From: Thermoplasmatota archaeon
GTDB lineage: Archaea > Thermoplasmatota > E2 > JACPAO01 > JAHFTW01
Assembly (NCBI GenBank): GCA_041601615.1
Contig: JBFIHX010000002.1
Coordinates: forward strand, 286,840 to 350,839
Direction of reading: 5' to 3'
DNA length: 64,000 nt
Shown here piece by piece: positions 22,624 to 37,645 of the stretch (its first letter is position 1; every line of letters starts with the position of its first letter). The notes below the pieces were generated by a model. That model searched no databases, had not been told where the DNA came from, and saw nothing but the letters and a program-made list of their open reading frames with translations. Made by a program: the position numbers and the translations under genes.

Positions 22624-22805
22624 GCGTTCACCTGTTGGGGTCGGCTCACCGTGAGCGGGATGGCATTCGCCTCGAATTCCCTCATGGCCACTTGGACCGG
22701 GTCGCGTACCTCTTCTGCTATGTCAATGAGCGGCGGGGCGCCCATGGAGATCTGAAGAGCGCGTGCGCCGACGATGCGGGCCTTTTCGAAGCGCGTGTAT
22801 TCCAT
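22620..22805 (-). CDS. rpoK: RNA polymerase subunit Rpo6/K
   Basis: [24 protein letters not shown]; stop overlaps the rps2 start. Confidence 0.93.
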
Positions 22806-23087
22806 CGTATCACCTGTCAGGGACGGGGTAAGCCTACCGCTGACTGTCGCGGCGAAGCCAAGGTGGATATAAACGGTTGCGCGGGCGATGCTCCGCTGTG
22901 GCCAAAATGAGCGCCGCCACCGGCGAATGTGCCGGCCGCCATCCCCGCTGTGGGGGATTTGCTCCAGTTGATGTAGTGCCCGGTTGCACTTGAGGCTTGC
23001 GCGTTCGGTCCCGCTGTCCGGCTTCGAGCACGGGCCCGTTCTGGCCCGGTCGTCGGTCTCAAGGAGCACGAACTCCAACTTGATTCG

Positions 23088-23843
23088 ATGGCCCCAGGTG
23101 CAGTGGTGACTCGGCGGCGGCCGCCTGGCTGGGCGTGGGCGTTGTGGGCGGGCGTTGTGCTTTTGTTGGTGGTGTTGGCCACGTTTACGCAGAGCGGGGG
23201 CATGGTAGTCTCCTCTGCTTTGGCGGGTGCTGCGACTGCATTGGCGGCGTGGACGGCGCTGGATGTGGGTCGGGCGCTGAAGCATCGGGAGGTGCTGCGG
23301 GCAAAAGAAGCGGAATTCGTGGAGTTTGCCGAAACCATTGAGTTGCGCGTGGAGCACGCGGAGCAGGAGTTGGAGGCGGCACTGAAGGATGTGCGCCGGG
23401 ATGCGGTTTCGGCGGTGCGTACACTTCGGGAGCAATTGGAGGAGTTGGAACGGGCCTTTGCAGAGCACTTTGCCACGCATCGGGGTGTGGGTGAAGATCG
23501 TCCTTCGAGGCCTATGCGGCCGACGAGGTTGGACGAACACGTGGATGAGGTGCTTGGTGCCGCGGCGGGAGGCGGAGAATCGGCGACGACGGGTCGTTCC
23601 GAGCGGCCGTTAGCGGGGGCTCCGGGTTGGCCCGTAGCGGAGATTCCGGGCATTGACGAGGCGCATGTGCTTCGCTTGCATGCTGCGGGCATTCATGATA
23701 CGGTGCAGTTGTGCGCGGCGGATCCTGTGGATGTGGCCAAGCGGGTGCGGGTGTGGCCAAACTTGGTGCGCAATTGGCAAGTGACGGCCGAGATGTTGCC
23801 TCGGGTGCAGGCGGCGCAGGCAGCGGCGGGGCCTGCGGGCTAG
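23088..23843 (+). CDS. Membrane protein with coiled coil and C-terminal HhH (DUF4332-like) domain
   Basis: 2 TM, heptad region, [23 protein letters not shown]. Confidence 0.6.
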
Positions 23844-23871
23844 GCTAGACTAGGCCTAGGCTTGACCTAGG

Positions 23872-24219
23872 CTAGCCTTCGAGCAGCGGCAGCAGATTCT
23901 CGGGGCCGGGGCGCCCGACGCGGGCATGGTCGCCGTGGATGAGGATGGGCCGTTCGAGGAGCTTGGGGCTTGCTGCGATGGCCGTCAAAAGTTCGCGATC
24001 GGAGGCGGTTTTGGCAAGGCTTGCAGCGTCGTCTTCGCCCCATCGCAGCCATTGGGCCACCGGCAAGCCGAGGCGTTTGTGGAGGATGCGCAGTTCGTCG
24101 AGGCTCATGGGCGCTTTCTGGTAGTCGCGCACTTCGTGGTCGACGCCACGTTCTTCCAGCATCGCGAGGGCGGCTCGGGACTTGGAGCAGCGCGGGTTGT
24201 GCAGCAACAAATAGGTCAT
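23872..24219 (-). CDS. arsC: Arsenate reductase (ArsC/Spx family)
   Basis: HNPRCSKSR, LLERPI, GRP. Confidence 0.85.
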   Translation of the reverse strand: MTYLLLHNPRCSKSRAALAMLEERGVDHEVRDYQKAPMSLDELRILHKRLGLPVAQWLRWGEDDAASLAKTASDRELLTAIAASPKLLERPILIHGDHARVGRPGPENLLPLLEG

Positions 24220-24288
24220 GCGGCACGGGAGGGGGAGGGGGATGAAGGGATTGCGAAAGGGGCCAGGGGCACCTGTGGGCAGCGGGGA

Positions 24289-25425
24289 CTAGAGTACGAA
24301 GTCGAGCCCGATGTCTTTTCGCTGGTTTGCCTGCTTGCGCGCGGACGGACCCAGGATTTGCTTGGAGCGAACGCCGGTGATGACGAGCATGACGCGCACG
24401 GCGCGGTCCAGGGCGTGGTTGACGCTGGTTCCCCAGATGATGCGGGCATCAGGGTTGATGCGCGAGTAGATTTCGTGCACAACCGCTTCTGCCTCCTTCA
24501 GGGTCATGTCGCTGCCGCCGACGACGTTCACTAGGGCGCCGCTGGCGTCGCTGATGTCGATTTCCAGAAGCGGGCTCTGGAGTGCTTCCGTGACTGCCGC
24601 AACGGCGCGGTCGTCGCCGTCGGACTCGCCGAGGCCGATCATGGCGACGCCACCCTTCTTCATGATGGTCTTCAGGTCGGCAAAGTCGAGGTTGACGAGG
24701 CCGGGCTTGGTGATCATCTCGGTGATGCCGCGGATGCTGCGAACGAGCAATTCGTCGGCGACCCGGAAGGCGGCGGCCAATGGTAGGCGCGGGGCGACTT
24801 CCAGGAGCTTGTCGTTGGGGATGACGATGACGGTGTCGCACACGTCGCGCAGGCGAGCAAGGCCCGCTTCGGCGTTCTCCATGCGCACGGCGCCTTCGAC
24901 GCTGAACGGCAGGGTGCAGACGGCGATGGTCAGGGCACCGGCTTCGCGGGCCATCTTGGCCACAACGGGAGCGCTGCCGGTTCCGGTGCCGCCGCCAAGG
25001 CCGCAGGTGATGAAGCACATGTCGGCGCCGGCAACGGCGGCTCGAATGTCTTCCTCGGTTTCTTGTGCGGCTTCTTCGCCGATTTGTGGCAAGGCACCTG
25101 CTCCGAGGCCGCGCGTGAGGTGGCGGCCGATGAGCATCTTGTGGGGGACCTTCGCCGACAGCAGGTGCTGCGCGTCGGTGTTGAGGGCGACCAGTTCCAC
25201 TTCACCCACGTCTTCCTCGGTGAGGCGCGTGATGGTGTTCGTGCCGGCGCCGCCGCATCCGAAGACCTTGATCTTCGTTACGAGACTGTGGAGAATTCGC
25301 TCCAAGTCGGCGTTGTCACTGGTTGCTTGCTTCTGTGTATTCGGCATGACCTGAACGGTCTGTGCCCCGCGGCCGGTCTCTTCGGCTCGGGCCACCGCCT
25401 CGCGGATAATGTCCTTCATGTGCAT
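24289..25425 (-). CDS. ftsZ: Cell division protein FtsZ
   Basis: GCGGAGTN, NTDAQHL, GGGTGTG, NLDFAD, C-terminal GLDFVL; start at 25425 or 25419. Confidence 0.96.
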   Translation of the reverse strand: MHMKDIIREAVARAEETGRGAQTVQVMPNTQKQATSDNADLERILHSLVTKIKVFGCGGAGTNTITRLTEEDVGEVELVALNTDAQHLLSAKVPHKMLIGRHLTRGLGAGALPQIGEEAAQETEEDIRAAVAGADMCFITCGLGGGTGTGSAPVVAKMAREAGALTIAVCTLPFSVEGAVRMENAEAGLARLRDVCDTVIVIPNDKLLEVAPRLPLAAAFRVADELLVRSIRGITEMITKPGLVNLDFADLKTIMKKGGVAMIGLGESDGDDRAVAAVTEALQSPLLEIDISDASGALVNVVGGSDMTLKEAEAVVHEIYSRINPDARIIWGTSVNHALDRAVRVMLVITGVRSKQILGPSARKQANQRKDIGLDFVL

Positions 25426-25473
25426 CCCCTGAGAGCGTGCGCTCCCATCCAATCGTGACAGGGCGGGGGACAT

Positions 25474-25489
25474 GGATAAATGTTCTCTG
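25474..25489 (-). promoter_or_regulatory. Putative BRE-TATA for ftsZ (CAGAGAACATTTATCC on -)
   Basis: Purine-rich stretch followed by TTTAT ~50 nt upstream of the probable start. Confidence 0.4.
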
Positions 25490-25495
25490 GGAGGT
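25487..25495. repeat. Target-site duplication CTGGGAGGT (left)
   Basis: Identical to 37774-37782; abuts the left TIR. Confidence 0.9.
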
Positions 25496-25510
25496 ACGAG
25501 CGTTTCAAAA
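25496..25510 (+). repeat. Left terminal inverted repeat ACGAGCGTTTCAAAA
   Basis: Reverse complement of 37759-37773 is ACGAGCGTTCCAAAA. Confidence 0.9.
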
Positions 25511-25604
25511 TTGGGGGAGCCTCCACGGCATGGTTTTGAAACAGCATCCCCTGCCTACGGCTCCAGGGTGCAAAGGCTCAAAATCAAGCTTTTAATGGGT
25601 AACC

Positions 25605-26066
25605 ATGGACTTAATCACGCTGCTCCAAAGAGTGGAGGCGTCCAATCCGAACAACTGGTTGACCCACGAAGGTGGAATCCACGTCTTCAAGGAAGACCTG
25701 AACGTCAGGTTGGTTGAAGACCGGGAAGACGAAGATTTCGGAATGGCATACGGGGCGAACTGGCTGCCCGAGGGCTTCCCCTATGAGGCGCAGCGAATCA
25801 CAGCCGGACTCTACTATGGCCTGAGTCTTGTTCAGGTGTTCACCTTGATTCAGATTCAACACCCGTCCTTTATCCTCCCTGCCCCCAACCCCGAGGGCGA
25901 AGACCCCACGAACTGGACGACAACGCGACTAAAGGTGGCGGTAGCGCACATCCTGAATGGGCCCGCCAACGACATACCCGCAATGCCCCAAATTGAGGCC
26001 ACTCTACAACAGTACGGCGTACAAATCGAGGGCCCCCATCATCCGCGCACCTTTGCCATGGGCTAA
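25605..26066 (+). CDS. Hypothetical protein at the element's left end, convergent with the transposase
   Basis: 153 aa; TTTTAAT just upstream; stop 1 nt from the transposase stop. Confidence 0.7.
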   Translation: MDLITLLQRVEASNPNNWLTHEGGIHVFKEDLNVRLVEDREDEDFGMAYGANWLPEGFPYEAQRITAGLYYGLSLVQVFTLIQIQHPSFILPAPNPEGEDPTNWTTTRLKVAVAHILNGPANDIPAMPQIEATLQQYGVQIEGPHHPRTFAMG

Positions 26067-26067
26067 C

Positions 26068-27423
26068 TTAGATTCGAGCATGGGGGTACTCTCCCCAAAA
26101 CCGATTTTGCAGCGTGTCGAGGCTTTCCCACCCCTCAAGCCGAGCCACGCCGCCTTCGAGCTGAATTTCCTCGTCGCGGACGTGGCTGACGTACACCAGC
26201 CGCGTCAGGTTGTACACCAGCGCCATGCACAGCAATTCGTTGCGCTGTGCCACTTCGCCCCGCGAGTATAGCCGATCTCCGAGTATGCGCTTCAGGGCGG
26301 CGTTTCCGGTCTCTACGTTGTTCTTGCGGTTGGCTCGGGCGTTGTACCCGTCCCGATCCACTTTCGACCGCTGTAAGGCGTCCTTGAAGGCTCTGCGCGG
26401 TCCTCGGATGCCGTTTCCGGTGGCATTTTTCTTGAATTTCATTTGCCCGTCGATGCCTTGGCGCTTCAGGTAGTCGAAGAGGTAGCCGGCAGAGTACGCT
26501 TTGTCGCCGCCGTACTCCTTGAAATTCAGCATCAATTGCGCCCGCATCAGGAGCGGCACGGCCCATTGGGCTTCCCCGAATCCGCCTTTCTGGGTGCGCA
26601 ATCCGGCGATCATGGTGTATTCGTAGGTCCACAAGATCACGGTGTACATCCATTCATGTTCCCGGCGATCCTCTTTTTTCTCGTGTTTCTCCTGGTAGTA
26701 CGCCCCAAAGTGCTGCGTCGTCAAGCCGGTGCCGTCCTGGTGCGCGATGGACTCATAGGGACGAACTGGCCACGTTGACAACGAGAGCAATTTCTCCAAG
26801 ACCTCGGTTGACTCTGGATCATTCAGGAACCGGCTCAAGGTCGCAGCACTGACAGGCCCATACGGGTTGTGTCTGCGGTGCGTGGCGTCTTGCATTACGC
26901 CCTCTAAGCGCCGCAAATTCTGCCGATTCCAAACCCGCATCACCGATTGATACACGAGCGCATGAAGCGGCGCCGGTGGACGCCCCTTTACTCCCGGCGC
27001 GAGTGGTTCTTCAAGGACTGGCAATGCCGAGCGCAGCAACCGCGCCAACAACCTTGGCACCATTTCCGGGCAAGCCTTCCAAGCTCGGGCCTCTAAGCCA
27101 TGATCTCGGGGCCGGTCGCCCTTGCGGTACACGGTCGCGGCCGTGTTGGGCAATTCTGTCATTCCTTCGTAGAGCATCACAACGAGAATGTGGGCGCACG
27201 GCTTCTCTTGGTTGTGGTCGTGGCCGTCTTGGGCGCACCGCAACAAGTCGCCGCGACGGTACACCTTGACCCGGTGAACGCCTTGGTGCCGGCGCACGTT
27301 CCAATGGTCCGGGTCCATTTTTTGAACCGCATCCTCAAAGCCCCAGATCGTCAAGGCGTTGCGGCGCAAATTCGGGTTTAATCGGTTCCAGAAATCCAGG
27401 GCTTCCAGGGTTTCTTCGTCCAC
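26068..27423 (-). CDS. DDE transposase (IS4/IS5-like) with N-terminal SWIM-like Zn finger
   Basis: C..(n)..PCAH SWIM-like motif; QDGTG (D), GDKAY (D), RKNNVETGNAALKR (E, YREK-like), RNELLCMALVYNL; GTG start overlaps the upstream TAG. Confidence 0.88.
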   Translation of the reverse strand: MDEETLEALDFWNRLNPNLRRNALTIWGFEDAVQKMDPDHWNVRRHQGVHRVKVYRRGDLLRCAQDGHDHNQEKPCAHILVVMLYEGMTELPNTAATVYRKGDRPRDHGLEARAWKACPEMVPRLLARLLRSALPVLEEPLAPGVKGRPPAPLHALVYQSVMRVWNRQNLRRLEGVMQDATHRRHNPYGPVSAATLSRFLNDPESTEVLEKLLSLSTWPVRPYESIAHQDGTGLTTQHFGAYYQEKHEKKEDRREHEWMYTVILWTYEYTMIAGLRTQKGGFGEAQWAVPLLMRAQLMLNFKEYGGDKAYSAGYLFDYLKRQGIDGQMKFKKNATGNGIRGPRRAFKDALQRSKVDRDGYNARANRKNNVETGNAALKRILGDRLYSRGEVAQRNELLCMALVYNLTRLVYVSHVRDEEIQLEGGVARLEGWESLDTLQNRFWGEYPHARI

Positions 27424-27665
27424 TACGGGGCACCCCCCAAAGCAAGCATAACCAGCTCTTTTCCGCCAAGGGCAAGGCCGAGGATCGTCACGGTCCACAA
27501 GAGCCGACGAATCAAGCCCAAGTGCGCCTTCAACGCCGACTCGCGGACCTCGCGCAAGTCCTCGCGGACCTCGCGGCGCAATTCCCCGACCTCGCGCTCT
27601 AGGTTGCGGCGCAAGTCGCGCATTGCCTCCAATAGCCGCATATCCTCCACGGTTAGCCGCTCCAA
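27423..27665 (-). CDS. Coiled-coil + C-terminal TM protein (XhlA/holin-like architecture)
   Basis: LRRNLEREVGELRREVREDLREV heptads then LLWTVTILGLALGG. Confidence 0.6.
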   Translation of the reverse strand: MERLTVEDMRLLEAMRDLRRNLEREVGELRREVREDLREVRESALKAHLGLIRRLLWTVTILGLALGGKELVMLALGGAP

Positions 27666-28132
27666 GTGTCCGTGATGTCTTCGAGCAAAACGTACCCCCC
27701 GGCACTGTGGGGCGTTAGGAGGCTGGCGTTGTGCGCCACGAGATCAACCACCACGGGCGAAGCGCCCCCGGAGTTGTCCACGAGAATGAAGTCGGTGATC
27801 ATCCCGCCGCCATAGGTGCGGGTGTACGTCTCCGGCTCCGCCGCTCCATTCACTTCGACCCGGAACCAATCAACATCGAGGCTGTCAGGGCTGACCGCGT
27901 ACCCGAAGACCTTGAAGACCGCGCCAACCGGCACCGAATACGATGCCACAACCGCTTGATCGTTCACGGGCAACGGGACAAGGGAGCCCTTGCCGCGCCG
28001 GACCTTGCGTTCAACCACTGACTTGATGTGGACGCTTCCAAGGGTGCCGTCCGGGCGCTCCTTGAGGCGCCCGTCCCAATCCACATACTCGCCCGTGTCG
28101 GGGTCGCGGATTTGCTGGATACTGTAGCCCAT
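27653..28132 (-). CDS. Putative virion structural protein (beta-rich)
   Basis: 159 aa within the coupled operon; alternating hydrophobic strands. Confidence 0.6.
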   Translation of the reverse strand: MGYSIQQIRDPDTGEYVDWDGRLKERPDGTLGSVHIKSVVERKVRRGKGSLVPLPVNDQAVVASYSVPVGAVFKVFGYAVSPDSLDVDWFRVEVNGAAEPETYTRTYGGGMITDFILVDNSGGASPVVVDLVAHNASLLTPHSAGGYVLLEDITDTWSG

Positions 28133-28306
28133 TCAGGGGCCTCCGATGCGGTTGATTCCGGGGCGGGGCGTGTATTGCCGGCACGACGCGGCGAGGGTCG
28201 TGCTTGGAATGTAGAACCCCAACGCGGAGCAATAGGGCACGGGCAACAAGGCGCCGGCTCGGCGTGCGCGGGTGTACCACTCGCAGGTTTTGCAGTCCAA
28301 ATCCAT
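28133..28306 (-). CDS. Small Cys4 protein (57 aa), not in ORF track
   Basis: MDLDCKTCEWY...YCS...SCRQY; TGA-ATG junctions on both sides. Confidence 0.7.
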   Translation of the reverse strand: MDLDCKTCEWYTRARRAGALLPVPYCSALGFYIPSTTLAASCRQYTPRPGINRIGGP

Positions 28307-28948
28307 TCAGGCCCCTCCCATGAAGATGCCCTCGCCGTAGCCGGCTTGCCGGGTGATGCGCTGGAACTGGAACGTTACGCTTGGGCCGTGATTGGTGATT
28401 TTCAAGAGCCGCCATGTTAGGCCCGATGTGGGGCTAAAGGCGTAAGCGGCGTAGGTGTCGCCCGTGGGCAAGTAGGCCACGACGAGCCCGTTCAAGTCCG
28501 ATCCGGCGCCCGAAAACAAGCCTTGGGTGGTTTCTCCGATGAACTGGATTCGGACTTGCCGCAACGGTTGGCCCGCTACGTCCACGGCGTACCCGACAAG
28601 CGTGGTTCTGTCGCCTTGGCGGTAGACCGCCGTGGGTCTGATTTCGCGGCTTGGGTGCCTTGATCCCGAGGCGTTGGCAAGCCACGCGCCGAGGCTGGCC
28701 ACGGGTTGCCCTGGTGTCTTGGAGGTCCAGGTGTTGCCGGTTTCGTGATCCATCCACCCTGCGTCTTCTACGTAGGAAGGGGCAAAGGCGTGGGTTCCGC
28801 CGTGGGGGTATGGGGGCGTGGCGCTTTCTTGGCCCGGGATGAGGTTCGGGGCGTTGTGGACGGTGCCGGATTCGGGGCCGAGTTCGCCACTAGTGGCGGC
28901 GTTTTGGTTTCCTTGGGCAATGCCCGTGTAGGTGGCCAATGCGTTCAC
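28307..28948 (-). CDS. Putative spike/receptor-binding protein (C-terminal carboxypeptidase-regulatory-like domain)
   Basis: GTGA overlap start; LVGYAVDVAGQPL...SDLNGLVVAYLPTGDTY. Confidence 0.55.
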   Translation of the reverse strand: MNALATYTGIAQGNQNAATSGELGPESGTVHNAPNLIPGQESATPPYPHGGTHAFAPSYVEDAGWMDHETGNTWTSKTPGQPVASLGAWLANASGSRHPSREIRPTAVYRQGDRTTLVGYAVDVAGQPLRQVRIQFIGETTQGLFSGAGSDLNGLVVAYLPTGDTYAAYAFSPTSGLTWRLLKITNHGPSVTFQFQRITRQAGYGEGIFMGGA

Positions 28949-29916
28949 CCCTGCCTGATTGCTACGGTGATGTAGGCGGTCGAGTCCGGGCTTTGCAGGG
29001 TCTTGACGAGGTACGTCTTTGTGACCGCGTCGTCCACCCAATCCACTAGATCGCCGTCTGCTAGTCCTTGGGCCAAGGCGACGACGAACCACCGCTTGGT
29101 TTGGGCAATGGGGATTCGTTTGTTGGTGTCTAGGTTGTTGCTAAAGTGTGGGAAATGGAAGTAGATTTTCGAGTTCCCGTCCGAGCGGTAGGCGCTGCGA
29201 AACAGTTCAACACCGGCACCATAGGCGACGGTTTGGGTGTTGAATGGTCGAATGTACTCCTTGCGGTTCAGGTCGGAATAGTTGCCAACGGCGCTAACTT
29301 GGCCGGTGCTGTTGTCGAAGTATTGGGCATAGTATCGGTCGTACCAATTGCCCCCTGTGGAGTACACAATGTTTGGGTCGCTGTTGGTCCATGCGGTAAC
29401 AAAGAAGTTGGAGTATCCGTCGGGATATTCCTTCTCGGTGTTGCGCTCCAAGGACAAGAAAGAGGTGTAGTCGTGCGCTGGACTGGCCATCCAACTGGAA
29501 AGGACGGTGAAGCCCTCGGCGTCTAGCCACATCCAGTATTGGCCGGCTTTGTCACCGCTACCGGCTCCAGTGGCCCAGTAGTAGTTCTGGGTCCATGAAG
29601 TGCCGTAGCTTTGCCAAGATTCCGTGGGGATGCCCGTAATTTCGACGGTGCCGCTTGGTGATGAGGTTCCAAGGTCGTAACCACTGGATACGGTGACGCG
29701 GATTTCGTTGAAGCGGTTGTACCCGGAACTACTGACGATTCGTTCGACGCTGACAAAGAAGCCGTCCGCGATGTGTTCGAGGGCTCGGCGGGCGGGGCTT
29801 ACGGCGGCGGGCCGGCCCGTGGGGTCGGCGTCGCTCCATGCGCCCGTGGCGATGAGGTCGTCTGCGATCTTGTCGGTGAGTTCGTCCATTGTTGTGTTTC
29901 CGCTTGAGAATGTCAT
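28945..29916 (-). CDS. Putative vertex/spike structural protein
   Basis: 323 aa, S/T/G/Y/W-rich, in the structural operon. Confidence 0.6.
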   Translation of the reverse strand: MTFSSGNTTMDELTDKIADDLIATGAWSDADPTGRPAAVSPARRALEHIADGFFVSVERIVSSSGYNRFNEIRVTVSSGYDLGTSSPSGTVEITGIPTESWQSYGTSWTQNYYWATGAGSGDKAGQYWMWLDAEGFTVLSSWMASPAHDYTSFLSLERNTEKEYPDGYSNFFVTAWTNSDPNIVYSTGGNWYDRYYAQYFDNSTGQVSAVGNYSDLNRKEYIRPFNTQTVAYGAGVELFRSAYRSDGNSKIYFHFPHFSNNLDTNKRIPIAQTKRWFVVALAQGLADGDLVDWVDDAVTKTYLVKTLQSPDSTAYITVAIRQG

Positions 29917-29922
29917 GAGGGG

Positions 29923-30333
29923 TCACGCTCCCGAGATGTGGAGTTTGTAGCGTTGCCCGGTCTCCGTCGTGTTGGTTACGACGGCTTCCAGGCTGTCCGA
30001 AAATCGAAGAGGGCTTTCCTTGCGAGTCCAGCGTAGGACGCCGGCTTCGTCACCATGCGAATACCGCTTGACCGAGCCGTCCAAGGACAGGCTTAGGGTA
30101 ACGCCGGGGGGCAGGTGGATATTGTAGAGTAGAATCTCGCCCGATCCCCGGTAGGTCAAGACGCGGCGCTCCCCGGCGAAGAGTTGCGGGTTGTCGTTGG
30201 CACCGGGAGAGTCGATCTGGAACGGGTGCGCTCCGTCTCCGGCTAGGTCTGCGATGCCTTCCCAGACCGTCCCCGCGAGTTCTTCCCGAGTCACGGCGCG
30301 GGGCCGGGGTTCTCGAATGGCTATGAGTGCCAC
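29923..30333 (-). CDS. Putative minor capsid/penton-like beta protein
   Basis: 136 aa beta pattern (YRGSGEILLY, VTLSLSLDG, LRFSDSLEAVVTN); function inferred from position. Confidence 0.45.
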   Translation of the reverse strand: MALIAIREPRPRAVTREELAGTVWEGIADLAGDGAHPFQIDSPGANDNPQLFAGERRVLTYRGSGEILLYNIHLPPGVTLSLSLDGSVKRYSHGDEAGVLRWTRKESPLRFSDSLEAVVTNTTETGQRYKLHISGA

Positions 30334-30497
30334 CCCCGCCGGGGTTTCTTGTGTCGTGGAACCCGAAGGTAGTGGGGGACGCGGTGTTTGGCTTGGAAGG
30401 CCGGGGCACGGCTCCGCTTGTATTCGTCGTCAAAGCGGGGGCCGTGGCCGGTGGCGGTGAAGCCGTCGCGTTGCGGTTCGCGGCGTTCCTTGGCCAT
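30321..30497 (-). CDS. Small basic protein (58 aa), candidate DNA-binding core protein; not in ORF track
   Basis: TAATG overlap start; MAKERREPQ...RVPRHKKPRRGWHS. Confidence 0.6.
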   Translation of the reverse strand: MAKERREPQRDGFTATGHGPRFDDEYKRSRAPAFQAKHRVPHYLRVPRHKKPRRGWHS

Positions 30498-30901
30498 TAC
30501 GAGCGACCTCCAAGGGTCAATAGGCCAACGACCAGCACCGCACCGGCAGCGACGACCACAACCGTGAGCTTGCCTAGCTCTTGACGGTCATTCTCTTGCG
30601 TCGTTGCGGGGGGCTGGCCGAAGGCGTTGAAGAGGCCAGTTTTGCGATCAAAGAGCACCCATGTTTCGGGCACTCCGTCGCCGTTGGTATCCACGGGGGT
30701 CTTGTCAAGTGGGGGATTGACGGCGCGGCTTACGTCGTCAGCCACGTTGCCCACTTGGTTCAAGAGAAGCGACCCACCGCCAAGGGCCGCAAGGGGGAAC
30801 ACGGCGGGCTTTAGGACGCGGCCCGCGCCGCTACTAAACCGCATGAATCCGCGACCAAATCCAGCAAGATTCGAGGCCCGAACCGCTGGGGCTGGACTCA
30901 T
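30497..30901 (-). CDS. Virion membrane protein
   Basis: Hydrophobic segment, DTNGDG Ca-loop-like motif, C-terminal TM; ATGA overlap. Confidence 0.65.
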   Translation of the reverse strand: MSPAPAVRASNLAGFGRGFMRFSSGAGRVLKPAVFPLAALGGGSLLLNQVGNVADDVSRAVNPPLDKTPVDTNGDGVPETWVLFDRKTGLFNAFGQPPATTQENDRQELGKLTVVVVAAGAVLVVGLLTLGGRS

Positions 30902-31887
30902 GAGACGAGCCCCCGGAAGAATTTCTTAGTGGACTTGTAGCCCGAGGAAACGGCGCTACTCGTGTCCTTGGCGGCGTCCCTTGTGGCGTTGACCACGCTT
31001 TCTTGGACGGTGCCCCGGTAGGCTTGGCGAAGGTTGCCGCGCACCGATCCACGACCAACCACGCCCGTCGCCACCGCGCCAACAGCGGCAAGGGGCAAGG
31101 CTACGGATTTGACCGCGACTTCGGCTTCATGTTCCACGGCTTTCGGAGTTAGGAATGCAATGGTTTTCTCGGCGGCGTTGCCCCGATCTAGGGCGTCAAG
31201 GGCGCCGGATTTTTCGAGCACGGCAGTTCCGCCGAGGCCAAGGGCCACGCCGGCAGCGGCAGCCCCACCGTAAGCAACGGGCGGGGCGCGAAGAAGCGCG
31301 GTGCTGCGAGTTGCAAGGTTTCCAAGTCGTGCGGTGCGCGTGGCGTTTTGGACGCCAAACGCATTGAGCCGGGATTGGGCGCCGCCCTTGGCCACGGCTC
31401 CGGCGCCGCCGCGAAGGAGGCTTGCGCCGCCTCGGGCAATGGCGCCCCCGGCGCTCTTGATCAGCGGGGCACCAAACGCTAGAGCAAGGCCGACGTTTGC
31501 AAGATCGGCAACTTGGCTAAACCTGGATGCACTCGCGGAGTCGGATGCGATTTCGTTGTTGATGCGGCGTTGTTCAGTTTCATTGGCGGCGTTGGCGCGG
31601 CGCAATTCGTCAAGGACGGCGGATTCGTATTCGGGACTAAACGCGGGCCCAAGACCCCCGCCTTGGGAACTCGCTTCGGGGTTTGGGGGGTTGGAATAGT
31701 CGTAGTATTGGCCGGTGCTTGGGTCGTAGGCATAGGCGCCGTCGGAGAGTCCGCCAAAGCCGGCGCCCTGTCCGCCAAGACCGGGGGCCGTTGGTTGCGG
31801 GCCTTGGTTGGCTTCGACTCGGGTGGCGGCGTAAGCGAGGCCCCCGAGTCCGATGAGGCCGAGTGCGATCAAGGCGGTTCGATCCAT
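30898..31887 (-). CDS. Ala/Gly-rich membrane-anchored virion protein (DNA delivery candidate)
   Basis: N-terminal TM MDRTALIALGLIGLGGLAYA, coiled coil, glycine-zipper segments; directly after the MCP. Confidence 0.65.
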   Translation of the reverse strand: MDRTALIALGLIGLGGLAYAATRVEANQGPQPTAPGLGGQGAGFGGLSDGAYAYDPSTGQYYDYSNPPNPEASSQGGGLGPAFSPEYESAVLDELRRANAANETEQRRINNEIASDSASASRFSQVADLANVGLALAFGAPLIKSAGGAIARGGASLLRGGAGAVAKGGAQSRLNAFGVQNATRTARLGNLATRSTALLRAPPVAYGGAAAAGVALGLGGTAVLEKSGALDALDRGNAAEKTIAFLTPKAVEHEAEVAVKSVALPLAAVGAVATGVVGRGSVRGNLRQAYRGTVQESVVNATRDAAKDTSSAVSSGYKSTKKFFRGLVS

Positions 31888-31892
31888 GAATC

Positions 31893-32750
31893 TCAAGCCG
31901 AAGCTTGGACCTCCAAGACCACCATGGTTAGGCTTCCGTTGGCTTCGGGGTTGGTGTTGACGACTAATTCGAGGGTGTCCATTCCCTTGGTTCGCAGGGC
32001 TTGCGATCCGTCCCCGAATACGTCGAAGTTGACGACGGCCCAATCCATGGGGGTTTCGTCCATCTCGAAGTCTGCGCGGTTTTCTTCGCGCAGTTGATCC
32101 CAGGGTTCGCGGGTGCGGTGAAACTTCACGCCGTCTTGGATCACGGACACCGACCGAAGCAAGGTCGGGGAGCTTGGGACCAAGAGAATTGCTTGGATCA
32201 CTTGGCCGTCTCGAATGTCGATCCCGGTTTCTCCTTCGACGCTTTGAAGATCCTTGTACACGGTCTTGCGCACGATCAAGGGGACTTTGCCAACGTCCTG
32301 GCCTTCGTTGATGATCTCGCGGGCGTAAATCGCCACGTTGCCGCCGACAATGGCGGTGTGATCCCCACCGGCGGCTTGCAGCTCATTGACTCCGGCAAAG
32401 GTAACGTGCAATTCGAGACTCGTAAACAGGAACGTTGGGAGCATCCCAAGGTCCAGGTACGCAAAGCCGAGGCCGGGGGCTTGGTCCTTGTAGGCGAGGA
32501 TGTTCAAGCGGCGTAGGTTCTCGAACGACAGGTTCGTGGTGGTCAGTTGTCCGCCGATCGTGAGTTCTATTCGCTTGATCATGCGGTTGGCGGCGTCTGC
32601 CGTGAACGCGCCACCAGATCCCCCCGCGAGGGCGCCGGGATTGACTTTGAGGCGAAGGCGGTTGAGAAAGTGCTGCCGTGGAATCGAGACGCGGACTGAT
32701 CCGCCGTCTTCGTATGGCACCACCTTGAACGGGCGCGTGATCACGGCCAA
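31893..32750 (-). CDS. Double jelly-roll major capsid protein (PM2/STIV-like)
   Basis: 285 aa with two internally similar halves: IKRIELTIGG..LRRLN and LRSVSVIQDG..LREEN, then VVNFDVFGD..ALRT..TLEL. Resembles PM2 P2 as recalled; downstream of the ATPase. Confidence 0.75.
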   Translation of the reverse strand: MAVITRPFKVVPYEDGGSVRVSIPRQHFLNRLRLKVNPGALAGGSGGAFTADAANRMIKRIELTIGGQLTTTNLSFENLRRLNILAYKDQAPGLGFAYLDLGMLPTFLFTSLELHVTFAGVNELQAAGGDHTAIVGGNVAIYAREIINEGQDVGKVPLIVRKTVYKDLQSVEGETGIDIRDGQVIQAILLVPSSPTLLRSVSVIQDGVKFHRTREPWDQLREENRADFEMDETPMDWAVVNFDVFGDGSQALRTKGMDTLELVVNTNPEANGSLTMVVLEVQASA

Positions 32751-32754
32751 GGGT

Positions 32755-32991
32755 TCACACTCCGCCGGCGATTCGGATTCCGGCCGTGACGAATCCGCCG
32801 CCGGCGCCGATCATGATGGTTCGGCCCCAGCCCTTGGATTTGTACGCAAGGGCGACGAGGGCGAGCCCGGCGGCGGCTTTCAGGGCGCCGTCGATCTTGG
32901 GGTCTGGATGGGAGGGAAGGGGGAGACGGGTTCCGTAGGCGCCGATGGCGCCCGATAGGGCCGTGCTGACGATTGCTTGGGTTGCGGTCAT
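32755..32991 (-). CDS. Small hydrophobic membrane protein
   Basis: 78 aa, 2-3 Gly/Ala-rich TM segments, GGAG upstream. Confidence 0.65.
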   Translation of the reverse strand: MTATQAIVSTALSGAIGAYGTRLPLPSHPDPKIDGALKAAAGLALVALAYKSKGWGRTIMIGAGGGFVTAGIRIAGGV

Positions 32992-32998
32992 TGGGGGT

Positions 32999-33202
32999 CT
33001 AAGGCTCCTGCCAATCGCTTGGCGGAAGACTAACGCGACGGCAGGCAACTTCTACCGTTACCCGCCCCCCTCGGGGCCTTTCTCGGTGCTTCTGGATCGA
33101 GTGGTTTAGCAATCCTTCCCAGGAGGGAAAGACGGGGGCCATCCATCCACGGGCTTCGCATTTGCAGCACAACCAACCAACGCGCCTACTGGCCAATTCC
33201 AT
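32999..33202 (-). CDS. Small Zn-finger protein (CxxC...HxxxxH)
   Basis: WLCCKCEARG...LLNHSIQKH; GAAGGTG before ATG. Confidence 0.55.
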   Translation of the reverse strand: MELASRRVGWLCCKCEARGWMAPVFPSWEGLLNHSIQKHRERPRGGRVTVEVACRRVSLPPSDWQEP

Positions 33203-33923
33203 CACCTTCAACAGGAGGGGACGGGGGTTGGTCGAGGGAGGGCCCCGAGGGGCCCCGAGGGGTCGCCATTGCTTTTCGGGGTTCGAGGCGGCAGGGTAGG
33301 ACCGCGCCTTGTTCGGCGCTCCAAAACGCAAAGTCTCCGATTCCGAACGACTTCATGCGCTGGACGGCCTCGCGTCCAAAGGCGGGTTCTAATGCGCGTT
33401 CGTCACCGGGAAAGGGCCGGGTGCTGACTCGGTAGGCTCCGGCGCCAAAGGTCAAGGGAATTTGCGCGAGGCGATGCGCGGCCCAGACCTTGGCTAGTTG
33501 GTTGGGTTTCTTGTGTCCAAGTTCTACGAGGTCTTGACACGCCGGGGGCAAGTCGCTAAGGCGCTTGGAGTCGGCGGTGATTCGTTGAAATTCGTCGGTG
33601 ACGACGACGGCCTTGTGAAACCGCATGGCGATTCGGCAAAAGTCGTTGTATGCCGAAAGGAGGGCTTCGCGTCCGGCGCTGCTTGGGGGGCTTGGCCATA
33701 CGACGAAGGGGGCTTTTCGGGCGGCGGCTTCCATTTCGGTGGCGGTGTGGACGACGACGGCAAAGTCGGCGTAGTCTGGTTTGGCGCCGCTTCGGGGTGG
33801 TGCGGCCCAGAAGGCGCCGCGTCCAATGCTTTGGGCCCAGGCGGCGATGAATGTGGTTTTGCCGGTGCCGTAGTCGCCGGTTACGAGGGCACTTTTGCCG
33901 GGTTCGAGGCTTGGAAGGTTCAC
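33186..33923 (-). CDS. Genome-packaging ATPase (FtsK-HerA/A32-P9 type)
   Basis: Walker A GDYGTGKT at the N-terminus, Walker B VVVTDE, LVELGHK, WAAHR; 245 aa, upstream of the MCP. Confidence 0.75.
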   Translation of the reverse strand: MNLPSLEPGKSALVTGDYGTGKTTFIAAWAQSIGRGAFWAAPPRSGAKPDYADFAVVVHTATEMEAAARKAPFVVWPSPPSSAGREALLSAYNDFCRIAMRFHKAVVVTDEFQRITADSKRLSDLPPACQDLVELGHKKPNQLAKVWAAHRLAQIPLTFGAGAYRVSTRPFPGDERALEPAFGREAVQRMKSFGIGDFAFWSAEQGAVLPCRLEPRKAMATPRGPSGPSLDQPPSPPVEGDGIGQ

Positions 33924-34093
33924 GCGGTTGGCCCCCCGTCTTTGGTGGCGTCGTGGAGTCGTTGCCGTAAGTGTTCGACGCGGCGGGGGTTGTGCTGGAA
34001 CCAGTCTTGGACGATGGGCTTGAAGTGGGTCCAGGTGGCGCCAAAGAGTTCGGCGCCTAGGTCGTTCACGATTTCTTGGAGGGTTTCAGTCAT
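33920..34093 (-). CDS. Small helical protein (57 aa), paralog B
   Basis: MTETLQEIVNDLGAELFGATW...; GGAGG upstream; stop overlaps the ATPase GTG. Confidence 0.7.
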   Translation of the reverse strand: MTETLQEIVNDLGAELFGATWTHFKPIVQDWFQHNPRRVEHLRQRLHDATKDGGPTA

Positions 34094-34259
34094 GGTCCCA
34101 GACCTCCAAGAGTTCGTGGGCGTAGTGTACGAGTTCCCTGGCTTTGCCGGGGTTTTCCCGCATCCATACCCGGAGGCGTCCGCGTAGATCGAACCAGTCG
34201 TACCCGAAGGCGTCCCCGGCGAGTTGATCCACAACGGCAAGAAGTCCCGCGTAGTTCAT
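34086..34259 (-). CDS. Small helical protein (57 aa), paralog A; not in ORF track
   Basis: MNYAGLLAVVDQLAGDAFGYDW...; ATGA overlap with the upstream gene. Confidence 0.7.
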   Translation of the reverse strand: MNYAGLLAVVDQLAGDAFGYDWFDLRGRLRVWMRENPGKARELVHYAHELLEVWDHD

Positions 34260-35290
34260 TCGGCAACGCCTCCGGCTTGGGCAAGTATTCCGTCCCAGTA
34301 TGGGTCGCCGGTGCCGCCGGTTTGGGGCTCGGGTTGATCTTCGGGTTCGGGTTGGGCGTCGTCGTTTTGGGGTGTGGTTTCGGGTGGGGCGCGGTCGGCG
34401 TAGATTCCTTTTCGACTGGCTACGAGCATTCCGAGGCTTGCGCCGCTGGCGATGAGGGCGGTAAGGGGGTGGTCGATGGGCAAGTCTGGAAAGTACAGGT
34501 CAAGGCAGGCGTGGACGGCGCGTGGAAAGCCCGTTTCGCGTACTTCGTCCACGTTCAAGGCGCCGTCTTCCTGTTTTCCAAGGGCCAAGCCGTTGATCAT
34601 GGCCGTTACGCCGCCGGCTATGATGGGTTCAAGGGGCACCTGGACGCGGGGCGCTGGCCGGGATTGGGTGGGGTCGCCGTTGGGGGTGTTTGGGTCGGGT
34701 AGGAGGGGGCCGACTTCGGGGGGTGGGGCAAAGGAGACCATGAGGGTCCCTGATTCTTCAGGAGTGGTGGGGTCTGGAATCGGGTTCGCTTCGGGTCCGT
34801 GGGTGGGTTTCGGGTTGGGTGGGGTTTGGGTCTCCTGTTGGGGCGTGTGTTTTGGTTCGGGTTGGGTTGGGTCTGGTGGGTTGGGTTCGGGTTCAATTGG
34901 GTCTAATCGGGTGGGTTCCCCTTCTGTTGGTGGTGGGTCTGGGTGGGTTGGTTCCGGGTTGGGTGTGGGTCGGGTCTCGGGTCGGGTGTTTGGGTCGGGT
35001 CCTCGGGACCCGGTGGGTGGGTGTCGGAGACCCGTTTTTGGACCCGATTTGGGTGGGTCTTGGGTGGGTTGGTTGAGCAGGGTGGCTAGGCCCGCGAGTG
35101 GGTCCATTTTGGGTTCGGGTTCGGGTTGTGTGGGTTGTTGGCGGTGGGTGTGGTGGTCGGTGTCCTTGCTCATTTGGACATGGGCGCCGAGTGCGCCGGG
35201 GTTGCGGAAGCGGCGTCCGCATACGGGGCATTGGTGGCGTGGTGGCCGGATTGGCCGTTTTTGGTCGGGGGTGGTGGTGTTTGGGGGCAT
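34256..35290 (-). CDS. C2H2 Zn-finger protein with long Pro/Thr/Glu linker and helical C-terminal domain
   Basis: HQCPVCGRRFRNPGALGAHVQMSKD; first large gene of the operon. Confidence 0.7.
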   Translation of the reverse strand: MPPNTTTPDQKRPIRPPRHQCPVCGRRFRNPGALGAHVQMSKDTDHHTHRQQPTQPEPEPKMDPLAGLATLLNQPTQDPPKSGPKTGLRHPPTGSRGPDPNTRPETRPTPNPEPTHPDPPPTEGEPTRLDPIEPEPNPPDPTQPEPKHTPQQETQTPPNPKPTHGPEANPIPDPTTPEESGTLMVSFAPPPEVGPLLPDPNTPNGDPTQSRPAPRVQVPLEPIIAGGVTAMINGLALGKQEDGALNVDEVRETGFPRAVHACLDLYFPDLPIDHPLTALIASGASLGMLVASRKGIYADRAPPETTPQNDDAQPEPEDQPEPQTGGTGDPYWDGILAQAGGVAE

Positions 35291-35499
35291 GAGCCTGAAG
35301 GCTCGGCGCGGTTTGACTGCCGGGTGGCGTCGAGGGTGCAATCAAAGTGGGTTGCAATCAAAGGGGCGAGCCGTCGCGGTTTGCGGCGGTCGTTGCTCAA
35401 GGTGGGTTTGCGTGTTTCCGGTTTGCAGTCAGGAGGGTTCGGGGGCACGGAGTCACCTAAGCAAGCCGTGACTGCGGCGGCTCGCCCAACTGACTTGAG

Positions 35500-35690
35500 C
35501 TGTCAATCAATCTATTAACTAATTGGTTGAATGATTGGACTATATTTCAAAATAACTAAAACTTTGCAGCAAATAGGACTAATTATAGAATATAAGTTCT
35601 TGTCGCCAATATTATAACTCTTAATAAAGTCATAACGATAATAAATCCTGATTGACTCGACTAATAAAACAAATTATATGGTGGGCAAGT
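35500..35690. promoter_or_regulatory. AT-rich control region upstream of the virion operon
   Basis: Abrupt AT-rich intergenic stretch with several TATA-like runs and TCAATC/GATTGA motifs. Confidence 0.5.
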
Positions 35691-35700
35691 TGGACAGTGA

Positions 35701-35785
35701 CGCGACGGGAAGGATTCGAACCCTCGGATTCGCCAGAATCGCCCGATCTTAAGTCGGGTGCAATAGGCCACTCTGCCACCGCCGC
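35701..35785 (-). tRNA. tRNA with anticodon UAA (Leu codon) and a Ser-like body
   Basis: GCGGCGG TG GCAG-AGTGGCCTA-TTGC A CCCGA-CTTAAGA-TCGGG C GATTC-TGGC-GAATC C GAGGG-TTCGAAT-CCTTC CCGTCGC G; all stems pair; TATA-like CTTAAA ~30 nt upstream. Confidence 0.9.
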
Positions 35786-36014
35786 AGTAGGGGGAGATAA
35801 CACCGCCCTGGCCGGTTTAAGCGTTGTTTTTTGAGGGCCATTTTCCCGTTTTGCATATGTTATTATACAGAATCTCTTTTACAACTACTAGCCAGAATCG
35901 CTCGACGCCCCCTCGCGGGGAAAACGCTCCCTCGGGAGCGGAGTCGGGGGCGGGGCGGGAAGTTGAGCTCACCTTTAGGGAGACGCGCCCGCCCCGTTTT
36001 TTCATTCACGGGGC

Positions 36015-36671
36015 TTATTGTGCCCCAGATTCAAACGGATTCGGAAGATTTGATTTTCCTCGCCTTTTTTTCGCCCCTTTACTGCCCCGATGGCTCACCA
36101 TATGGCCGTTTTCCCTTAGTTTTTTCCTCGCAATAGATTCGGAGCGGCGAAAACCTTTAGAATCTCTAGGCGTCTTTATATAATTAACTTGCCCAAATTC
36201 ATTCTGCACTTCCAATATTCTATCTCTCACTTTACAAAGATGCTGTTTATCCCCCGTAAGTGCGTGTAGGTAATACCACGCCGTTTGACTATCCGTAAAA
36301 CACCTAACTCGGCATGCTTCTGGATTCCGTAATATTTTTCTGGCTTCAAGCAGGCCCAACAAGATTGCCTCCATTTCAGCTTGATTAGTGCTGATACTGT
36401 ATCGGTATTTTCCAGATTCTGCTAAAATAACTCCATTTTCATTTACTACAATTGCGCCCATGCCCGAAGCCCCCCACTGGCCGGGTTTGCCCGATTTTGT
36501 AGATTTAGGTCGCATCTCTGCATCACTAAAAACAACCAATTCACGCACGCTACCCGGATGTCGGCGCCGGCCTTCATGCAATTTTGGCAAGCCGCTCTTT
36601 GGGGCTGGCCACACGGGCCCTAAATAAACAGGTATATTTTTAGGTTTCGTCATAATTGCTCCGAAAGCCAT
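36015..36671 (-). CDS. RNase HI-like protein (AT-rich)
   Basis: VVFSD, GASGMGAIV, TNQAEMEAILLGL, FTDSQ, KTPRD..RSESIAR. Confidence 0.8.
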   Translation of the reverse strand: MAFGAIMTKPKNIPVYLGPVWPAPKSGLPKLHEGRRRHPGSVRELVVFSDAEMRPKSTKSGKPGQWGASGMGAIVVNENGVILAESGKYRYSISTNQAEMEAILLGLLEARKILRNPEACRVRCFTDSQTAWYYLHALTGDKQHLCKVRDRILEVQNEFGQVNYIKTPRDSKGFRRSESIARKKLRENGHMVSHRGSKGAKKRRGKSNLPNPFESGAQ

Positions 36672-36695
36672 CAGTTGAATTCTTTGTAAAATATT

Positions 36696-36857
36696 TTAAA
36701 TATCAATTTTAACTGGTTTCAGATGGACTCCACCTTCATCTATAACCCACGCCAGATGATCCCCTTTTCCCACTTTCAGGGCCACCATTACTTCTTGTGG
36801 TATCCCCATTCTTCCTGACGAATCAATGCGCCGAATTTCTGTAAAGGGCAGCTTCAC
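36696..36857 (-). CDS. AbrB/MazE/SpoVT DNA-binding protein
   Basis: RRIDSSGRMGIPQEVMVALKVGKGDHLAW; GTG start inferred. Confidence 0.78.
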   Translation of the reverse strand: MKLPFTEIRRIDSSGRMGIPQEVMVALKVGKGDHLAWVIDEGGVHLKPVKIDI

Positions 36858-36860
36858 ACC

Positions 36861-37253
36861 TTGGGGGAATTGGCAACAGTGCATAAATGGCACCGGCGAA
36901 ACGTTGAATATGCCAGTCTGCCCATATGGGCAAATATGCATCAATGCAAACCTCCCGCAAGCGATGGCGACCCACACGGCCAAGATGACGCCAATCAGTC
37001 CCCCACCCAACATGACGAAAACACGGAGAACCCACGATTCGAGTTCACCTGTGACCAGCATTTGAATGGGCCGCGAATCAACCATTCCCATTGCAACACC
37101 AAGCTGTCCAAATGGCAACTGGTCGAAAATCCAGAAGAAGGCTCCATAGGAATTTGGGCGACAACATGCCCAAAGTGCAACACCTACATCACCGTCGAAA
37201 TGGAACTAGACCGATTCCCCGAACCTGCCATGAAGCCGCGAGGTGGCGACTAA
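36861..37253 (+). CDS. Small Zn-ribbon protein (start uncertain)
   Basis: HSHC...CPKC; stop overlaps the RHH start (TAATG). Confidence 0.45.
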   Translation: MGELATVHKWHRRNVEYASLPIWANMHQCKPPASDGDPHGQDDANQSPTQHDENTENPRFEFTCDQHLNGPRINHSHCNTKLSKWQLVENPEEGSIGIWATTCPKCNTYITVEMELDRFPEPAMKPRGGD

Positions 37254-37645
37254 TGGGTGCGGGTGGCGGTAATTTCCGACAAGCCGGGATACCGGCAGAT
37301 CTTGCAAAAGAAATCGTCTACCTGATCAAAGTCCACCCGCAACTTGGGTACCGAAGCTTGTCAGAATTTGCCCGGATCGGGATCATCGAGCATTTGCGCC
37401 TGACTCGGATGCAATTGGCGTTAGAAGCAATCTGGGCCACGGCCGAATTAAGCGCCGATGCTCTCGATGCCATGCTACGGGATTCCCTGCCTCCTGCCTA
37501 CATCAAAATTCTTGATAGCGCACGACCAAATGGAAAACCACCCGCTACTACGCCATATCCGCCCCATTACGGAGACAAACAGGGCAACCGGATCAGTCCA
37601 GTCTCCCCCTCAATCCGGGCGGAGTTAGACAAGCTAACGGGCTAG
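37253..37645 (+). CDS. Ribbon-helix-helix (CopG-like) regulator
   Basis: AGIPADLAKEI...LGYRSLSEFARIGI; GAGGTG RBS. Confidence 0.75.
   Translation: MGAGGGNFRQAGIPADLAKEIVYLIKVHPQLGYRSLSEFARIGIIEHLRLTRMQLALEAIWATAELSADALDAMLRDSLPPAYIKILDSARPNGKPPATTPYPPHYGDKQGNRISPVSPSIRAELDKLTG

Follow-up and report, generated by a model that had tools for sequence, protein, structure and literature searches.

How does a small virus that encodes a capsid protein and no recognisable integrase or replicase come to lie within an archaeal chromosome? This question is raised by a 64,000-nucleotide stretch of DNA from a Thermoplasmatota archaeon (contig JBFIHX010000002.1, positions 286,840 to 350,839; hereafter the window), in which a block of virus-like genes ends in a gene for a DDE transposase. 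An earlier, sequence-only reading of this DNA had proposed that the transposase belongs to the virion operon and is not a passenger insertion sequence (IS), and that it may amplify, excise or re-integrate the viral genome. Herein, positions 25496-37773 (12,278 bp) are delimited as one element, which is quite probably a transposon-built provirus of a tailless icosahedral archaeal virus with a double jelly-roll (DJR), STIV-like capsid. The host is a marine archaeon; the genes to the left of the element, judged by eye from their translations, presumably encode FtsZ, ribosomal protein S2, RNA polymerase subunit K and a membrane pyrophosphatase.

The element is bounded by a 9-bp target-site duplication (TSD), CTGGGAGGT, which stands at 25487-25495 on the left and, as an exact match, at 37774-37782 on the right. 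Directly inside the duplications lie the terminal inverted repeats (TIRs): the left junction reads CTGGGAGGT followed by ACGAGCGTTTCAAAAT, and the right junction reads GTTTTGGAACGCTCGT followed by CTGGGAGGT. The left end (25496-25550) consists of the TIR ACGAGCGTTTCAAAAT at 25496-25511 and an inner inverted GTTTCAAAA site at 25534-25542. The right end (37656-37773) contains three sites of the form GTTYCRAAA..GGGG, the outermost of which lies inside the terminal repeat at 37758-37773. The left end and the reverse complement of the right end agree at 15 of 16 positions. The site motif, GTTYCRAAA and then GGGG, was found five times in the 22 kb scanned, twice in the left end and three times in the right end, and no copy lies between the transposase and the structural genes within those 22 kb. 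TIRs with a TSD of fixed length are the pattern of IS4/IS5-superfamily transposons, and the 9-bp length recurs at three further insertions described below.

The site without the element was also found. In a DNA search of 30 relatives, one contig of a genome of the same genus (G002) matched the window at 22000-25494 and at 37888-41000. By direct comparison, window segments 24022-25494 and 37888-39290 lie about 100 bp apart on that contig, and the uninterrupted site carries a single CCGGGAGGG, related to the window TSD. Because the sole TIR pair and the TSD, like the empty site, frame all 12.3 kb, and because related elements keep the gene, the transposase is very likely the element's own mobility enzyme, and the claim that it is no passenger IS was borne out.

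The transposase gene (26068..27423, minus strand) encodes 451 amino acids (aa) with an N-terminal SWIM-like C-x2-D...C-x-H finger, and the enzyme was placed in the IS4/IS5 superfamily by its DDE_Tnp_1 domain, AlphaFold2 (AF2) modelling and Foldseek. The reading frame is open upstream to 27705, and a protein of 545 aa would be possible. In an alignment with 18 homologues, 15 begin within a few residues of the GTG; the proteins P0001, P0008 and P0021 extend further upstream with unrelated, gappy residues, and the 94-aa stretch ahead of the GTG has no conserved counterpart. The clustering of the starts at the GTG and the unconserved upstream stretch thus support the 451-aa reading. The window protein matches Pfam DDE_Tnp_1 (PF01609) at E 5e-7, and all 19 family members have this match. 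In NCBIfam, the scores for IS5_2 (66 bits against a cut-off of 140) and IS1182 (33 against 270) reach no curated IS-family threshold; by its profile scores, the transposase is classed as IS5-related and outside every curated family of NCBIfam.

The catalytic residues are well conserved. D230, D307, E371 and K378 are invariant in 51 sequences and form the D, D, E triad and the E-x6-K motif. For the AF2 model (pLDDT 90.4, pTM 0.87), the best solved neighbours in Foldseek were the RNase-H-fold transposases ISCth4 (6.7e-5) and Tn5 (2.7e-4, TM 0.36-0.38); a PDB sequence search with the transposase profile returned nothing. The sequence-only reading had called the protein a SWIM-DDE enzyme. The DDE half of this name stands, and the SWIM half is kept here only as a likeness: the invariant finger residues C63, D66, C76 and H78 form C-x2-D...C-x-H rather than CxC...CxH, and PF04434 (SWIM) gives weak matches, at best E 0.13, in nine of the 19 members and none in the window protein. 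At the finger position, the AF2 model shows strands and then a helix. In the genome that holds the window (G000; 2.79 Mb, 93% complete), neither the transposase gene nor its DNA has a second copy.

The viral nature of the element is given by its capsid gene (31893..32750, minus strand), the 285-aa product of which was identified as a major capsid protein of the STIV/PM2/PRD1 type by profile, AF2 and Foldseek. It has 21 homologues besides itself, among them capsid proteins that are 77-78% identical, and the profile of these 22 sequences matches the STIV coat protein (2bbd/3j31) with E 6e-7 over residues 7-268. Foldseek with the AF2 model (pLDDT 84.4) retrieved STIV 2bbd (3e-15), PM2 P2 (6e-15), PRD1 P3 and the large capsid proteins of eukaryotic viruses. 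The protein is a double jelly-roll capsid protein, of the kind that defines the capsid of Tectiliviricetes and the STIV group. Two genes upstream of it, a P-loop ATPase of 245 aa with a Walker-A motif (33186..33923, minus strand) is presumed to be the genome-packaging ATPase; homologues 63-65% identical to it adjoin the capsid gene at two related loci (L024 and L025).

Related elements were identified by both genes. The search for the transposase gave 62 hits, of which P0002 is a fragment of the window's own protein and 60 are other homologues. The transposase family occurs at ten loci in species-representative genomes, and three of these (L007, L009 and the decayed L011) carry homologues of the structural genes of the window, in the same order, upstream of the transposase and on the same strand. 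L007 and L009 both come from one genome (G023), in which contig C91 is one element (L007/L024) and L025 with L026 (including L009) is a second copy. A metagenome scan with the capsid profile found one locus, the L023 contig, with the layout of the window. In all four capsid-bearing elements with enough sequence (the window, L024, L025 with L026, and L023), the transposase lies downstream, on the same strand and near one terminus. L011 is a decayed remnant that has both the capsid-block genes and the transposase. Contig C91 (L024:1-12432; 12,432 bp) starts exactly at the TIR GGCTGCGTTCCTAAA and ends 4 nt past its inverted partner; such breaks suit a free linear genome or flanks that vary within that sample. 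The second copy, on contigs C187 and C108, is integrated, with TIRs that begin GGCTGCGCTCC and GGCCGCGCTCC and a 9-bp TSD, GTCGGAAGG.

The capsid gene is rare, being found in two of 197 genomes of the class (G000 and G023) and in one of 401 sampled genomes of the phylum. Of the 197 class genomes, 35 have members of the transposase family, with 1-6 matches each. Neither the capsid protein nor the capsid or transposase profile retrieved a relative from IMG/VR, the GenBank phage set had no match to the capsid or the transposase, and the plasmid set had one weak partial match.

The genes between the capsid gene and the transposase form a conserved block. Open reading frames (ORFs) o159, o57, o261, o323, o136, o58, o134 and o381 (27653..31887, minus strand) are presumed to encode virion or membrane proteins; they are tightly packed with Shine-Dalgarno (SD)-like motifs upstream, and several of the conserved ORFs are hydrophobic or beta-rich. 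Their order is kept, at 29-64% identity, in L007/L024, L009/L026 and L023. Apart from a weak match to DUF7302, no family in Pfam or PHROGs was matched by this block. A 97-aa hydrophobic protein (32755..33048, minus strand), seen in translation and with a homologue in L025, is presumed to be a virion membrane protein.

The first gene of the block (o361; 34256..35341, minus strand) encodes a 361-aa C2H2 zinc-finger protein with a CPVCGRRF...H finger, a proline-rich linker and a conserved C-terminal domain. Pfam zf-C2H2 was matched weakly, and the Atlas places the protein among viral C2H2 proteins. The same finger motif (CPVC.R.F...GGHL) was found 320-560 nt upstream of the transposase in L006, L010 and L012, and by tblastn just upstream of it in L004 and L008, that is, in five of the seven loci without capsid genes. 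In the capsid-bearing elements, the C2H2 gene is the first of the block, 7.8-9.4 kb upstream of the transposase. Since the C2H2 gene directly precedes the transposase in those five of seven loci, the structural genes lie between two genes that adjoin each other elsewhere.

The terminal repeats were also found at other sites. A genome-wide TIR search returned a second pair in the genome of the window, on contig C1 (C1:385525-397560; L028:2026-14061), 12,036 bp apart. This C1 element has perfect 19-bp repeats, ACGAGCGTTCCAAAAGTCC, the subterminal motif of the window and a 9-bp TSD, GGTGATGCC. Its genes encode HsdR, HsdS and HsdM, a complete type I restriction-modification (R-M) system, as well as an AbrB/MazE-type protein and a 484-aa protein of unknown function; it carries neither the transposase nor capsid genes. 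Its length is within 2-3% of those of the capsid-bearing elements (12,278 and 12,432 bp). A further insertion with the same ends and the TSD CCAACCGCC lies in G002, split over the end of contig C164 (L032) and the start of C138 (L031), with its interior missing from the assembly; no transposase was found in that genome, which is 86% complete. Four independent insertions with 9-bp duplications were thus seen, in the window, G023 (GTCGGAAGG), C1 of G000 (GGTGATGCC) and G002 (CCAACCGCC). For the loci L003-L006, L008, L010 and L012, generic inverted-repeat scans and seed-and-extend gave noise-level pairs in GC-rich DNA, and by motif search, L005 was the only one of these loci with a convincing right end, and L006 had a likely left end. 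A lone 16-mer at C14:14974 of G000, with two mismatches to the TIR and no partner found, may be a chance match or a solo end.

How the transposase is expressed was considered from the junction at its start. In the gene block from 35341 down to 26068, successive genes overlap or are separated by short gaps. On the minus strand, an 80-aa ORF (27665..27423) ends with TAG at 27425-27423, and the transposase GTG occupies 27423-27421, giving TAGTG with one shared base (27423). The SD-like sequence GGGGGGTG stands at -15..-8 relative to the GTG. The overlap of GTG and TAG with an SD-like motif upstream, as described in the sequence-only reading, is therefore confirmed in the sequence. Motifs resembling GGAGG or GGGGG lie about 4-23 nt ahead of nine of the 15 printed block starts, or 11 of 15 when GGGG runs are included. 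Because SD-like motifs and overlaps occur throughout the block, the junction resembles the other junctions of this polycistronic block. We lean towards the view that the transposase is co-translated with the structural genes. A TTAT also stands at -28..-25 of the GTG; by haloarchaeal promoter rules, an internal promoter there may give a leaderless transposase mRNA.

The 80-aa protein (27423..27665, minus strand) has a coiled-coil N-terminus and a C-terminal membrane segment. Its homologues in L023, L007 and L009 are 38-46% identical and share an invariant hydrophobic C-terminal LALGGK segment, and this conservation indicates that the ORF is a real gene. Its earlier description as holin-like found no family support in Pfam, NCBIfam or PHROGs.

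The replication genes of the element were searched in the same three databases. No polymerase, helicase, primase, HUH-Rep or tyrosine/serine recombinase was found among its 17-20 ORFs, in single-sequence profile searches that would miss a remote or novel initiator among the small ORFs. The accessory genes of L024, L023, L009 and L005 likewise gave none of these by profile search; the only matches were an N6/N4 methylase, a treble-clef zinc protein and an HNH nuclease. The earlier observation that no replicase or integrase is recognisable thus holds for the element and also for its relatives.

The state of the element was followed in Logan contigs from four DNA runs of a single study; one of these runs is probably the source sample. 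A single contig covers 24696-39000, and the contigs of another run bridge both junctions. This shows that the element is stably integrated at this site in those samples.

A mechanism can be proposed from these data. The IS4/IS5-superfamily transposase would act on the TIRs and the subterminal GTTYCRAAA..GGGG sites and cut the target with a 9-bp stagger. The C2H2 zinc-finger protein, encoded at the other end of the block, would, by its gene linkage, probably be the DNA-binding partner or a regulator of the transposase. As the last cistron of a 9.3-kb co-directional block, the transposase would probably be made from the same mRNA as the other proteins, by way of the SD-like site and the one-base overlap. 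It would take the place of the tyrosine integrase of other STIV-group proviruses, and it would probably also serve in trans the transposase-less 12.0-kb R-M element of the same genome. Excision as a linear molecule with repeat ends for packaging can be put forward only tentatively.

Several observations weigh against the interpretation of the element as a provirus with a transposase of its own. The transposase occurs without capsid genes, by tblastn, at seven of the ten loci. The same ends that bound the capsid element also bound an R-M island. The transposase phylogeny, proposed earlier as a check, was built as a quick maximum-likelihood (ML) tree of 59 transposases, leaving out P0002 (a fragment of the window's own protein) and six rows of fewer than 400 aa. 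In this tree, the window transposase groups with P0001 (62% identical), apart from the L023/L024/L026 group; the transposases of the capsid-bearing elements do not form one clade, and the basal branches are very short. The presumed packaging role of the ATPase, which in DJR viruses belongs to an FtsK/HerA-type (A32-like) enzyme, draws on weak matches, to AAA_16 and AAA_22 (both below the Pfam cut-off) and to a PHROG terminase-like family (5e-5), and the protein has no sequence match in PDB. No free or encapsidated genome was seen in the IMG/VR scans or the GenBank phage set. In the Logan contigs of the four runs, the integrated form alone was present; no joints, circle, empty site or separate higher-depth contig was seen, and since such contigs drop rare variants, they neither support nor exclude rare excised or transposed copies. 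Finally, in the relatives, 1.5-2.4 kb of other genes stand between the 80-aa gene and the transposase; in L024, these are an AbrB-like gene (by eye), a secreted protein and a lipoprotein. Because of this interval, the stop/start coupling is peculiar to the window copy and is no feature of the family. We do not accept a functional meaning of the coupling to late genes, or genome replication by the transposase, as shown.

The role that the sequence-only reading had suggested as one option, replication in the manner of Mu, was weighed on the same evidence. The transposase would then be the replication engine: the induced genome would multiply by replicative transposition, and the copies would be cut out or packaged afterwards. 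The lack of a replicase by profile search in the window element and in the complete relative L024 would fit, as would the fact that the transposase and the ATPase are the only conserved enzymes, with the transposase at the end of the structural block. Contig C91 of G023 breaks at both TIRs, as would happen with heterogeneous flanks in the sample, and IS903 of the IS5 family can transpose replicatively. However, many small archaeal viruses lack a recognisable replicase, which makes this absence weak evidence. The profile searches returned no MuB-like partner, and the enzyme itself belongs with IS4/IS5 rather than with rve/MuA; Tn5, its nearest structural neighbour, is a cut-and-paste enzyme. 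A single contig holds the element together with its flanks, and neither additional copies nor joints were seen in the contigs of the four runs. Headful packaging from the chromosome is not known for DJR viruses. That the genome is replicated by Mu-like replicative transposition is thus regarded as unlikely.

A second alternative takes the element as one member of a large archaeal family of cargo transposons, equipped with TIRs, a zinc-finger protein, the DDE transposase and an AbrB-type regulator, of which one lineage took up a provirus. The transposase would then stand outside the viral life cycle, and the capsid genes possibly no longer make infectious particles. The capsid block could indeed be just another cargo, because seven of ten loci are without capsid genes and the same TIRs and site motif carry the 12,036-bp type I R-M element, which has neither capsid genes nor transposase; the zinc-finger gene directly upstream of the transposase in five of those seven loci and the scatter of the capsid-linked transposases in the tree point the same way. 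In contrast, the four capsid-bearing elements, from at least three sources, have all structural ORFs intact, in the same order, at 29-65% identity and always with the transposase. This conserved order together with the transposase fits long-term selection on a working virus-transposase unit, and not one dead capture. The element sizes of 12.0-12.4 kb also suit the genomes of small DJR viruses. The cargo explanation is held to be improbable, and a functional or recently functional virus is likely.

That an ordinary IS landed at the end of a provirus integrating by other means is very hard to maintain: the transposase family does occur without capsid genes, but no end motif separates the transposase from the structural genes, and with stop and start overlapping there is no space in which one could sit. 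The one TIR pair, together with the TSD and the empty site, encloses the full 12.3 kb. No recombinase was found in Pfam, NCBIfam or PHROGs, and the relatives keep the transposase.

The remaining features of the element were assigned as follows. Two small overlapping ORFs (33920..34259, minus strand), of unsure boundaries and with partial homology in L025, lie between the ATPase and zinc-finger genes. Within the zinc-finger gene, degenerate GGGTT-rich direct repeats at 34760-35150 encode the proline-rich linker; the C1 element, in which no zinc finger was found, has a similar stretch at L028 about 5450-6730. An AT-rich spacer, recognised by sequence, covers 35510..35690 (no strand assigned); in L024 and L025, no such spacer was seen ahead of the zinc-finger gene. 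In its right arm, the element has a lower GC content and carries a tRNA-Leu(UAA), an RNase H-like protein and an AbrB-type domain, for which no conservation in the relatives was found. The tRNA-Leu(UAA) gene (35699..35786, minus strand; ARAGORN, Rfam) is absent from the empty site in G002. A second tRNA-Leu(taa) of the genome, at C14:35799-35881, was not matched by DNA search at E 0.001, and because of this dissimilarity, the copy in the element looks foreign. The RNase H-like protein has 218 aa (36015..36671, minus strand; Pfam RVT_3 1e-6, PHROG RNase H 3e-7). The AbrB/MazE-type ORF (36696..37118, minus strand; Pfam MazE_antitoxin 5e-5) shows this domain in its C-terminal 45 residues, and its true start is probably internal; AbrB-type genes are also present in the C1 element and, by eye only, in L024. 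The ORF at 37250..37645 (plus strand) has no assigned function; other parts of the genome hold paralogues of it at the DNA level. At the opposite end of the element, a 153-aa ORF (25605..26066, plus strand), convergent with the transposase, is probably cargo; it has no match in Pfam, NCBIfam or PHROGs, no usable Atlas match and no homologue in the related loci. In the L023 contig, a 784-aa protein with many zinc-ribbon/treble-clef repeats and helix-turn-helix-like segments is encoded on the other strand, between the 80-aa gene and the transposase (L023:5663-8017, minus strand).

Only 23 nt separate the left end of the element from the annotated start codon of ftsZ (25473, minus strand; window 25473-25496), upstream of which it lies. 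The ftsZ gene is thus cut off from its former upstream DNA, and the AT-rich terminal repeat may now supply an outward-reading promoter to it.

The element was compared with known systems. Virus integration by DDE transposition is already known from tailed phages (Mu) and from eukaryotic elements (Polintons, Teratorn). Mu and the transposable phages share with the window element a DDE transposase that acts on the genome ends for chromosomal insertion and leaves a target duplication. Mu is a tailed phage whose rve/MuA-type transposase works together with the MuB ATPase; its duplications are 5 bp long, and its DNA is packaged by the headful mechanism along with flanking host sequence. In contrast, the window enzyme is of the DDE_Tnp_1 type, no second ATPase was found in Pfam, NCBIfam or PHROGs, and the TSD is 9 bp. 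With Polintons/Mavericks, the common ground is a DJR capsid and ATPase module in a TIR-bounded, TSD-making element. Polintons have a pPolB, an rve integrase, a protease, 6-bp TSDs and eukaryotic hosts, whereas no PolB, rve integrase or maturation protease was found in the window element in Pfam, NCBIfam or PHROGs. Teratorn is described as a fusion of piggyBac and a herpesvirus, that is, of a whole virus with a cut-and-paste transposon, in a eukaryotic host. For PIF/Harbinger, whose DDE transposase is IS5-related, a recent preprint states that a separate DNA-binding protein is required (bioRxiv 10.64898/2026.05.26.728016). The likeness to PIF/Harbinger and IS5-family elements lies in the IS5-related transposase with a C2H2 protein as its conserved neighbour, where a partnership is suggested by gene linkage only; those elements measure a few kb and have no cargo of the size seen here.

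The STIV group (Turriviridae-like: STIV, TKV4, MVV) has in common with the window element a DJR capsid protein akin to STIV B345, a small adjoining ATPase, an archaeal host and an integrated state. Passages of a 2018 survey of DJR viruses describe many members of this group as using tyrosine integrases and carrying a rolling-circle replication (RCR) Rep, MCM or PolB, and the word "transposase" is absent from that survey, at least from its main text (Yutin et al. 2018, PMC5894146). The window element differs in that it has no recognised integrase or replicase, and has a DDE transposase, TIRs and a 9-bp TSD instead. The HGV-2 Vinavirales (PM2-like) of the human gut are likewise prokaryotic DJR prophages encoding a DDE transposase; one passage says of their IS630-family transposases that they "likely mediate the prophage integration" (PMC9502842). 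Those prophages are bacterial, their enzyme belongs to IS630, and the passage gives no ends, TSD or empty site, whereas the window element is archaeal, has an IS4/IS5-type enzyme with a SWIM-like finger and has proven boundaries. That single sentence of inference is the precedent for prokaryotic DJR viruses found in print. No description of an archaeal DJR virus with a transposase was found in open-access papers and preprints. New here are the boundaries, the TSD and the empty site of an archaeal STIV-like provirus, and the finding that the same system also carries a defence island.

More speculatively, and against considerable odds, the transposase-bound repeat ends may be the unit of excision, packaging and re-insertion, with a linear, transposase-capped genome and the R-M element as a capsid-borne satellite. 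If true, any capsid-sized DNA between the same ends would be moved and packaged, and the 12,036-bp R-M satellite would spread a defence system in virus capsids.

The finding bears on the fusion of virus and transposon modules in prokaryotes, a step proposed for the origin of Polintons. It also bears on the existence of large cargo transposons in archaea; according to a 2019 survey of Thaumarchaeota, composite transposons with passenger genes had not been detected there (PMC6563490). Finally, it bears on genome copying in a small virus that has no recognisable replicase.

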